A DNA stretch of 64,000 nucleotides, taken from the NCBI RefSeq assembly GCF_048403405.1, contig NZ_CP183129.1; one strand, written 5' to 3'. This DNA comes from Escherichia coli (GTDB lineage Bacteria; Pseudomonadota; Gammaproteobacteria; Enterobacterales; Enterobacteriaceae). The notes below the pieces were generated by a model, which was given only the letters and a program-made list of their open reading frames with translations, was not told where the DNA came from and made no database searches. A program made the position numbers and the translations under genes. Below, piece by piece: positions 47,674-52,373 of the stretch (within the stretch, counting starts at the first letter, position 1; every line of letters starts with the position of its first letter).

Positions 47674-48138
47674 TATGGATTGCCTGTAAAGTTCATCGCT
47701 TTCTGCTTTCTATCATCGCAGGAGAAGGCGTAAAAGCAAGCGTTTAGCGACTCTTTATGAAGTCTGAAAAGTGAGGAAATGCTGCGAGTATAACGCTTAC
47801 TCGTGGCGATTTATGTTTTGCTGGTAGTTTCGTGATCGGCACCTCGCGCCAGGATGGCTTTATGCACTATCGCAATGTGGTTTGTTTGTTGGCTTGTTCG
47901 TTGTTTTTATCGTCGGCATGGGGATGTCGGCTTGATGAGCGGAACATAATATTTACCAGAAACAGGGAAAAGGCGTGGTGTATTTGCGCCCTTATGAAAA
48001 GACCAATCTTTCGCTATATAGAGACATTATTATTCCGTTGACGGATGAATCATGCCAGAACGCAGCAGACGAGCAAACTTTGAAGCCCTGACCCCATGCC
48101 GCTATACTGCCGCCATCACTTAAAAACAGGATACAACA

Positions 48139-48498: not shown

Positions 48499-51045
48499 TC
48501 ACGAAAAATACTGCTGTAATAGCGGCGTGTCGTGATCCTGATTGGCAGGCGGCATGTTGCCAATCGATTTGGTGCGGAACGGAATCACCTGTTCACGACC
48601 ATCAACCTTCACAATCTGATAGAACTGCGGCAGGTTGAAGTTGATGAAGCTTGAGCCGTAGGTAAAACGGTCGTGCGATGACGAGTAGAAGCGACTGACG
48701 TCACGCACCAGCTCCTCTTTGCTGCCTTCGCAGTGGTGATACACCTCAACCCGGTTGCTTTCGTCGAGAATGTAGATATTAAAGCCATTTTCGTCTTGCG
48801 TTTCTTCGAAGAAGAACTGGATGATCCCTTCGCTGGCAAAGCCGTCCACCACCGCCGGTAATTTGACGTGATTGGTTTCAACCTGCACTGACAGGCCGTG
48901 CAGTTTGTTATGCGAAATAGCGCCATAAAACTCGATGGCATTTTCTAGTTTCTGTACCGATACATTCAGGCGCTCGAAGAATAAGCCCCAGGTTTGACCA
49001 GAAACGCGCAGCGCCTTGAAGCGCCCGGTTTCCTGGCGGGTGCTGGAAAGACGCAGTTCAATGCACTCAGAAACCAGTTGCTGCACGCGAGTACGGATTA
49101 ATCCGCGCAGATGCTGGCTGTAGCAGAAGACTTCCACGCTATCTGGCGGTGCTGCGTCCTGATGCATTTTACCGAGAATGGTTTTCAGGGCTTCGATCAT
49201 CGACTGCTCGCCGTTGAAGTGCAACGTACGCACTTCGTTCCACGAGTTGCGGTACAGCAGGTCCACGCTACCTACCAGGCAATTTTGATTCTCGCCAAAG
49301 CTGAAGACATCCAGCTTACGGAAATCGAAATGCACCACCTGATTGCGGAACGCAGCTGTCGGGTCATATTCCAGGTTAACGATAATCGCCAGATGGCGAA
49401 TTTCACACGGGCTGTAGAGCGCTTTTGGCGTCGGTGCAGGCAGGCGCAGCGGGAAATGGTGTGACACATCGGCGACCATCTCCTGCAACTTAGGCAAATC
49501 GACAATGCCGTTGCCTTTAATATACAAGCGGGTACGCGAGGTCAGCAGGCCGTTAAACCATGCCCACGCCACCAGTTTATTCAGGTAACGGTTATATTCC
49601 AGCGGCTGATGGCTGATGATCGACTCAATATTTGGCGCGCGGTTATACAGATACCAACCTGAACGGTTAGCCCGGCCCGGCGGCACATAAATAAAGGTCA
49701 GATTCGGTTCCGAGAGATCGGGCGAAATCTGCGGGTTTACCAGCGTCACTTTACCTGGCAATGCTTCAAACGCGGCGTACAGTTTACGCGTCAGCACGCC
49801 GATATCCTGCGGACTGGCGGAGACGCTAAGGTTATTGCGACGCGCAAAGCGGATCAGATTACGGTAGCTCTGCATCATCGCGTCGAGCAGCTCGTTGTGC
49901 GCCTCACGCACCTGATCAATCTTCCAGTTAGCGCGGTTATCGAGCATTGCCAGACGAGCTTCGTCCCAACCCCACTCGCTCACTAACTGGCTCAACACTG
50001 CGCGACGCCAGCCTACACAGGCGCGTTCACGGCTGAGTTTTTCGCACACTTTTAAATAGAAGCAGCGACGCACTAAATCCAGACGGGTGAAATCTTCAAT
50101 CGCCGTCAGGTATTCAGTAACACGCTCCAGCATCATGCAGTATGGATCGAGGCCAAACGATACAATCTCGCCGTCGTGCAAACGCTGTTTGATATCTTTC
50201 GCCAGCAGACGTGGGTTCGGGTATTCCCAGGAATAGGCTTCCAGCAGCAGTGTTTTCAGCACCGCTTTGTATGGGGAATCAATACTCTTGTAGAGCTGCC
50301 AAAGGCTGGCACCAAAGTACTCTTCAGCAGAAAGTGAGCTTAAACCACCGAGATCCAGCCATTCATTTGGCGTCAGCACGCCCTGCGCGTAAAGCGTCAT
50401 CACATAGTCGTCGTAATGCTCTTCTTCGTCGCACGGCACCATATTCCACAGAATACGCTTACCAGCGAGACGCACGGCGGTACGGTAAAATTCGTCAAGC
50501 AGCAGTATATGCTGGGTGGAGCCACAATCTTCGCCCCCCAGGCTGCCGCTTTCATTATGACGGAAGCGATTTTCATCAATCAGGAAGAAGCTAACTTCCA
50601 CGCCCAGCGAGGCGGCCCAGCTTTCCAGCAGACTGCATTTACGTTGTAGTAACTGGCGCTCTTCGCTATCAAGCCAGGATTGATGACAGACCCAGATATC
50701 CAGGTCAGAGGAACAACTTTGCCCTACGGACGAGGTGCTGCCCATGGTGTATACACCAGTAATTGGAAGCTCACCTTTCGGCGGATCCTGTACTGACATT
50801 CCACGATACAGTTCAAGCTCGTTCAGGTAGTGGCGTTGAGTTTCATCAGGCGTGTAAAGGCAAATGCCTTTGGGAACGTTACCATCAAGGTAACCCGGCA
50901 TTAGCGGATGGTGATAGTGCAACAATGTCGGCAGTAGACTGTAGACCTGTTGGAATGCAGGCCCCATAGCAGCAAGCGCGCGATCCACACGCAATTGATT
51001 TATGGCATCCAGTCTCTGTTTCAGAGTCTCAATATAGAGGTACAA
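48499..51045 (-). CDS. cyaA: Class I adenylate cyclase CyaA (TTG start codon)
   Basis: 848-aa product beginning [28 protein letters not shown]; the initiation codon at 51043-51045 reads TTG on the coding strand. Confidence 0.95.
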
Positions 51046-51431
51046 GACGTATCGCCTGATTTGCTACCCGTCATGACTGTGATTCCGCCAACATCAACGG
51101 TAACACGCGGCATTCGGGATATTTCGTATGTCAAAGGTAACCGTTACCACTTTTCGCGCCTGGTTTTTTTAGTTTCACGACGAAAAAATGGTCTAAAACG
51201 TGATCAATTTAACACCTTGCTGATTGACCGTAAAGAAAGATGCGCTACATACAAGTGTAGCACCGTTTATTCTCTGTAAATTCCTTATTACGACGGCGTG
51301 AAACGCCTGTCAGGATCCACTGCCAGACCTCATTTTACGGTTTGCGCAGGCGTCTACGTTTCACCACAACACTGACATCGCTCTGGCAAGGATGTTAGGA
51401 TGGACCACGGATGATAATGACGGTAACAAGC

Positions 51432-52373
51432 ATGTTAGACAATGTTTTAAGAATTGCCACACGCCAAAGCCCACTTGCACTCTGGCAGGCACACTATGTC
51501 AAAGACAAGTTGATGGCGAGCCATCCGGGCCTGGTCGTTGAACTGGTACCGATGGTGACGCGCGGCGATGTGATTCTTGATACGCCGCTGGCGAAAGTAG
51601 GCGGAAAAGGCTTATTTGTAAAAGAGCTGGAAGTCGCGCTCCTCGAAAATCGCGCCGATATCGCCGTACATTCAATGAAAGATGTGCCGGTTGAATTCCC
51701 GCAAGGTCTGGGGCTGGTCACTATTTGTGAGCGTGAAGATCCTCGCGATGCCTTTGTGTCCAATAACTATGACAGTCTGGATGCGTTACCGGCAGGCAGT
51801 ATCGTCGGGACGTCCAGTTTACGTCGCCAGTGCCAACTGGCTGAACGCCGCCCGGATCTGATTATCCGCTCCCTGCGCGGCAACGTCGGCACTCGCCTGA
51901 GCAAACTGGATAACGGCGAATACGATGCCATCATTCTTGCCGTAGCCGGACTAAAACGTTTAGGTCTGGAGTCACGCATTCGCGCCGCGTTGCCACCCGA
52001 GATTTCTCTTCCGGCGGTAGGACAAGGTGCGGTGGGCATTGAATGCCGCCTTGATGATACACGCACTCGCGAGCTGCTTGCCGCGCTGAATCACCACGAA
52101 ACTGCACTGCGCGTTACCGCAGAACGCGCCATGAATACCCGTCTCGAAGGCGGATGTCAGGTACCAATTGGTAGCTACGCCGAGCTTATTGATGGCGAAA
52201 TCTGGCTGCGTGCGCTGGTCGGCGCGCCGGACGGTTCGCAGATTATTCGCGGTGAACGCCGCGGTGCGCCGCAAGATGCCGAACAAATGGGGATTTCGCT
52301 GGCAGAAGAGCTACTGAATAACGGCGCGCGCGAGATCCTTGCTGAAGTCTATAACGGAGACGCCCCGGCATGA
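51432..52373 (+). CDS. hemC: Porphobilinogen deaminase (hydroxymethylbilane synthase) HemC
   Basis: ORF open from 51411; canonical start [19 protein letters not shown]. Confidence 0.93.

Follow-up and report, generated by a model that had tools for sequence, protein, structure and literature searches.

Translation of cyaA, the adenylate cyclase gene in Escherichia coli, starts at a UUG codon (51045..51043, minus strand), and the combination of this start codon with a weak Shine-Dalgarno (SD) sequence keeps adenylate cyclase at a low level, a reading to which we assign a probability of about 95%. All coordinates refer to the window, i.e. the whole stretch of 64,000 nucleotides that was analysed. 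The assignment of the TTG draws on the sequence, on its conservation and on the literature (Reddy 1985 and Roy 1983, both cited in PMC5499595), and no evidence contradicting the UUG-start explanation was found in this analysis. The TTG start itself is already known and is textbook knowledge for this gene.

Identity and annotation of the gene

The minus-strand open reading frame at 48499..51045 (848 codons plus stop) is the E. coli cyaA gene and encodes a class I adenylate cyclase, as shown by the list of open reading frames, the translation, Pfam and NCBIfam profiles and a RefSeq annotation with identical ends. The original prediction had placed an 848-aa frame at 48499-51045 with its TTG at 51043-51045, and coordinates, length and codon all proved exact against the sequence and the list of open reading frames. 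Pfam PF12633 (Adenyl_cycl_N) aligned to CyaA residues 5-200 (profile positions 2-198 of 199, E = 1.2e-82) and PF01295 (Adenylate_cycl) to residues 228-825 (profile positions 1-600 of 601, E = 3.2e-258); the NCBIfam equivalog NF006977 scored 2050 bits versus a curated cutoff of 1761, with CyaA aligned over residues 1-848 of 848. As these family profiles begin at CyaA residues 1-5, the start of the families is the start of the TTG-initiated protein. The translated protein is exactly identical to the cluster member CYAA_ECO57. A sequence search of the PDB with the 848-aa protein gave no matches at E <= 0.001, and the class I adenylate cyclase family is apparently without a solved structure in the PDB copy searched.

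The window is part of an E. coli chromosome. Its cyaA start region matched another E. coli chromosome with 100% identity over a 721-nt query, and of 5426 complete E. coli genomes, 5425 contain it. Compared with the characterised E. coli K-12 gene (b3806; Roy, Haziza and Danchin 1983; Aiba et al. 1984; Reddy, Peterkofsky and McKenney 1985), gene, start codon and 5' region are the same, with 99.7% identity over the 721-nt start region and an identical annotated start (848 aa); apart from a few strain-level SNPs, nothing relevant differs. RefSeq/PGAP annotates the 'class I adenylate cyclase' from the same base in both the 100%-identical genome and K-12 W3110, in agreement with the predicted start. 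Position 51076 is one such SNP, being T in the window and A in L004, L005 and L007, the three species representatives of E. coli-type Escherichia. According to the RefSeq tables of two E. coli genomes, hemC lies divergently upstream of cyaA and cyaY convergently downstream, and hemC is also found upstream of cyaA in Vibrio-like and Aeromonas loci and on a contig of GCA_015689235.1.

Assignment of the initiation codon

On the minus strand, the sequence around the cyaA start reads atcaggcgatacgtcTTGtacctctatattgag / aatcaggcgatacgtcTTGtacctctatattgagactctgaaa, with the TTG at 51045..51043. An in-frame TAG (51064..51066, minus strand) closes the frame 7 codons upstream, and no ATG, GTG or TTG occurs in the cyaA frame between this stop and the TTG; an in-frame ATC at -15 is a formal start candidate by sequence alone and sits within the SD-like motif. 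The next in-frame candidates downstream on the same strand are TTG18 (50992..50994) and GTG20 (50986..50988), which together span 50986..50994, followed by ATG27 (50965..50967), the first in-frame ATG, from which an ATG-only gene caller would produce a protein of 822 aa.

Exact-sequence look-ups revealed how the start has been called in public data: the 848-aa form (TTG1) was present on at least 1000 contigs, the 829-aa form (GTG20) on 47 and the 822-aa form (ATG27) on 9. The expectation that ATG-only gene finders tend to mis-call this start is thus weakly borne out, since truncated forms do exist, but they are rare, and GTG20 is picked more often than the first ATG. The practical lesson is a small one: callers that prefer ATG or GTG still leave a few truncated CyaA entries in GenBank-derived data (56 contigs versus at least 1000 correct ones).

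These annotations, together with the presence of ATG27 in all relatives, are the observations that favour initiation at GTG20 or ATG27, with the TTG as merely the first possible start. This alternative is contradicted by the codons that it would leave untranslated. The locus was taken from 80 Enterobacteriaceae species representatives, 79 of which include the cyaA start; the first 30 CyaA residues are identical across all 79, and codons 2-26 contain 20 variable nucleotide columns with 0 amino-acid changes. Nucleotide variation without a single replacement, as expected under pure amino-acid constraint, indicates that this stretch is translated, and its conservation at the protein level reaches down to about 41% identity. 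CTG stands at codon 18 in 53 of the 79 species, and GTA or GTC at codon 20 in 21, so that neither is maintained as a start. Moreover, no SD-like element is usable for codon 20 or 27, the best being a GGAU located 13-18 nt away, the family profiles begin at residues 1-5, and mutagenesis of the UUG has been reported to change expression (PMC5499595). Met27 was conserved in nine out of nine distant relatives (at position 27 in seven, and at 28 and 31 in the other two), and ATG27 is simply a conserved Met. Initiation downstream of the TTG is consequently regarded as effectively refuted.

Conservation of the start codon and its surroundings

The cyaA start codon is TTG in all 79 Enterobacteriaceae species and never GTG or ATG. 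To this set, nine distant relatives were added from a protein search (a 200-aa N-terminal query, which returned mostly fragments) combined with contig look-ups; their identity to the N-terminal domain is 41-80%, and among them are Photobacterium sanctipauli, an Aeromonas veronii MAG and Vibrio-like contigs. A TTG is found at the homologous position in all nine and is the called start in eight, the starts in these distant species being gene calls supported by homology. In the eight, in-frame stops lie 4-26 codons upstream, while the ninth retains the TTG and its gene caller picked an ATG four codons upstream. Among 5425 E. coli genomes, 5418 show 100% identity over the 61 nt around the TTG (-30 to +31), and the one variant inspected carries a change at -22 with the TTG intact. 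These comparisons reproduce, independently, the published claim of UUG selection across gammaproteobacteria.

In the 79-species alignment, the TTG is embedded in a nearly invariant translation-initiation block extending from -16 to +20 (51026..51061, minus strand). The segment from -16 to -1 exists in six forms, and just two of these cover 69 of the 79 species; a C/T alternation at -4 is the main variation within the otherwise invariant block. The 20 nt upstream of -16, in contrast, comprise 57 distinct sequences and a 1-nt indel, a divergence that marks this part as non-coding. Strong conservation extends into the coding region: among codons 2-13, the third position reaches at least 95% identity in 9 of 12, compared with 27 of 179 later codons (Fisher p = 1.7e-5). 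The idea that the ultra-conserved initiation region represents a special cyaA RNA element was nevertheless rejected, as hemC from these loci, used as a control, behaves likewise (6 of 12 early codons versus 1 of 184 later ones), which points to a general constraint on initiation regions rather than to one specific for cyaA.

Inspection of the sequence upstream of the TTG revealed a weak SD-like element, CAGGCGA (51052..51058, minus strand), which ends 6 nt before the start codon, a functional spacing, and forms a duplex with the 16S 3' end of -2.9 kcal/mol versus -9.2 kcal/mol for AGGAGG. The SD motif ATCAGGCGA does not vary among 10 aligned sequences whose protein identity goes as low as 71%, and AGG or GGA motifs occur 7-10 nt upstream of the TTG in the Vibrio-like, Photobacterium and Aeromonas loci. 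The CAGGCGA element is weak but invariant. No unusual secondary structure was detected in the fold from -60 to +60 of the cyaA start (z = -0.69), and a search of Rfam over 50700..51450 gave no match at E <= 1. A structured RNA or known RNA family at the start was thus considered and discarded; a small CUCUG-AAA-CAGAG hairpin at codons 7-11 is broken by an ACT-to-ACA change in many genera.

Consequences for adenylate cyclase synthesis

That the TTG limits adenylate cyclase synthesis, as originally predicted, is supported by published measurements in the cyaA context, in which adenylate cyclase from UUG, GUG and AUG starts stood at a ratio of 1:2:6 (Reddy et al. 1985, as quoted in PMC5499595). 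In the proposed mechanism, the weak and interrupted SD CAGGCGA, located 6 nt upstream, would position the 30S subunit, and the initiator tRNA would decode the UUG despite a mismatch at the first position. Together, this weak SD and the near-cognate codon would result in a low initiation rate, which in turn would yield little adenylate cyclase and a low cAMP-producing capacity. cAMP drives catabolite control.

Rho-dependent termination inside the cyaA ORF has been described by Adams et al. (PMC7815308), who attribute such cases to regulated translation initiation. The supplement of that work lists Term-seq 3' ends at MG1655 positions 3991231 and 3991346, which correspond to window positions 50967 and 50852 (+78 and +193), as located by the printed flanking sequences, and places the Rho-termination region early in the cyaA ORF (50852..50967, minus strand). 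In our interpretation, this early termination may be a consequence of sparse ribosome loading.

Low synthesis may not be the main reason for which the codon has been kept. A possible, albeit tentative, alternative is that the UUG is retained mainly as a regulatory handle instead of an expression cap; its initiation would then respond differently from that at AUG to polyamines, ppGpp/IF2 and cold, so that CyaA synthesis would be preferentially maintained or stimulated in nutritional stress. Two articles point in this direction: PMC5499595 reports that the cyaA UUG is conserved in gammaproteobacteria and that the competitiveness of UUG mRNAs is least affected in stress-mimicking conditions, a property linked there to the conservation of UUG in cyaA and spoT, while PMC7177335, citing Yoshida 2001, places cya in the polyamine modulon on account of its inefficient start codon, at which polyamines enhance initiation by stimulating UUG-dependent fMet-tRNA binding on cya mRNA. 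In addition, an invariant TTG in 79 of 79 species that is retained in 9 of 9 distant relatives exceeds what would be predicted if any weak start would do. On the other hand, GUG, which is also weak, differs only 2-fold (PMC5499595), and a drift from TTG to GTG might be disfavoured for dosage alone; furthermore, a 'low level' and a 'regulated level' are not separable by the sequence analysis used. We favour the explanation in which the UUG and the weak SD keep the amount of enzyme low.

A weak start codon that is kept throughout the gammaproteobacteria and linked to control of translation is also found in other E. coli genes, namely infC (AUU), spoT (UUG) and the polyamine-modulon members cra, gshA, frr and uvrY (PMC5499595, PMC7177335). 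The AUU of infC is an autoregulatory target of IF3, whereas the effect described for cyaA consists of a lower basal rate together with stimulation by polyamines. To our knowledge, no autoregulatory factor is known for cyaA.

A candidate upstream reading frame

The original prediction further saw no in-frame ATG with a better SD upstream of the TTG. This is correct for the cyaA frame, but an ATG (51074..51072, minus strand) that is out of the cyaA frame in E. coli lies 29 nt upstream of the TTG and is preceded, at a spacing of 9, by an SD-like GGCGGA with -4.8 kcal/mol versus -2.9 kcal/mol for the cyaA SD. It opens a candidate upstream ORF (uORF) of 17 codons (51021..51074, minus strand), which overlaps the cyaA TTG and stops at 51021. 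In MG1655 coordinates, the UUG corresponds to 3991153 and the uORF AUG to about 3991124. The frame of this ATG depends on a single base: relative to E. albertii, Salmonella and Citrobacter, E. coli is without one base at about -16, and this ATG stands in the cyaA frame (codon -10), with no intervening stop, in E. albertii, Salmonella and most Citrobacter. The Salmonella enterica cya control region (Thorner, Fandl and Artz 1990) agrees with E. coli in the TTG, in the SD-like motif and over the first 30 codons, and differs by the extra base at about -16, which brings the upstream ATG (-30) into frame without a stop in between and makes a 10-residue N-terminal extension, MTGSNIRRYV-, formally possible. 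A paper on Salmonella N-terminal proteoforms does not mention cyaA.

A second ATG occurs in other members of the family. In 37 of the 79 Enterobacteriaceae species (among L022-L083), T instead of C at -4 generates an ATG at -5 (cf. window 51048..51050), where E. coli has ACG; this ATG, found in many other genera, opens a 9-codon ORF, MSCTSILR[HRLP] followed by a stop, which uses the alternative frame of the E. coli uORF and usually its stop as well. In about a quarter of the genera, the cyaA start is not crossed by any ATG-initiated ORF. The indel and the genera devoid of such an ORF imply that the uORF frame is not conserved.

It is conceivable, though in our view improbable, that low CyaA translation in E. 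coli is partly set by this uORF, in that ribosomes starting at the AUG at 51074 would read 17 codons across the UUG and thereby occlude, or couple to, cyaA initiation. The overlap with the TTG and the nominally more favourable SD-like match would fit such a role, as would the presence of the uORF in the window and in all four Escherichia loci with the 1-nt deletion (L004, L005, L007, L003), the near-identity of the surrounding 61 nt among E. coli genomes, and the ATG at -5 in many other genera with its shared frame and stop. The in-frame position of the same ATG in E. albertii, Salmonella and most Citrobacter and the quarter of genera lacking an ATG-initiated ORF across the start speak against it, as does one E. 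coli strain with a missense change in uORF codon 2. Likewise, neither cyaA nor the expected coordinates appear in the small-ORF ribosome-profiling supplement of Stringer et al., and no published record of the uORF was found, this supplement included. By the same comparison, the deletion of 1 nt near -16 in the lineage of E. coli may have switched the upstream AUG from an in-frame codon to the start of a 17-codon uORF; if used, which we consider a long shot, it would constitute an unreported lineage-specific translational control of adenylate cyclase, and it could contribute to the Rho-dependent termination early in the cyaA ORF. The candidate uORF appears to be the only unreported item at the cyaA start.

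Intergenic region and neighbouring genes

Several further elements were noted between hemC and cyaA. A CRP-consensus-like site, TGTTAAATTGATCACG (51199..51214, minus strand; pattern match with 2 mismatches), overlaps a promoter-like TTTACG-17-TAAATT (51234..51206). Both together we take to be, probably, the CRP-repressed cyaA P2 promoter (Aiba 1985, Roy 1983). A second CRP-consensus-like site with 2 mismatches, TGTTGGCGGAATCACA (51078..51093, minus strand), lies just upstream of the uORF ATG; by our own estimate, chance alone would give about 0.16 matches of this kind in the intergenic region. The cyaA 5' region also contains a perfect palindrome, GGTAACGGTTACC, at 51136..51148 (minus strand), followed by TTTGACATACG, as well as a TTGACA at 51129..51134. 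Most of the palindrome region (GGTAACGGTTA) is found again in other genera, among them Salmonella and Enterobacter, although the neighbouring sequence diverges; the palindrome may be bound by a protein or form part of a promoter. Upstream of the putative P2 promoter, a terminator-like hairpin, GTGCTACACTTGTATGTAGCGC followed by ATCTTTCTTT (51242..51263), was reported on both strands.

The divergent hemC (plus strand) presents the opposite start problem to cyaA (51411..51434): its longest ORF begins at ATG 51411 and encodes 320 aa, while the RefSeq start at ATG 51432, which is conserved in 74 of 74 species checked, gives 313 aa. On the other side of cyaA, RefSeq annotates a partial DKNYY-family pseudogene fragment (47828..48013, plus strand) between cyaY and lptM in the matching E. 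coli genomes; in K-12, the fragment is not only partial but frameshifted too.

Conclusion

For the window itself, confirmation of the start shows only that the gene is annotated correctly. With its UUG, cyaA is a classic case of a weak start codon that sets the level of a key signalling enzyme.
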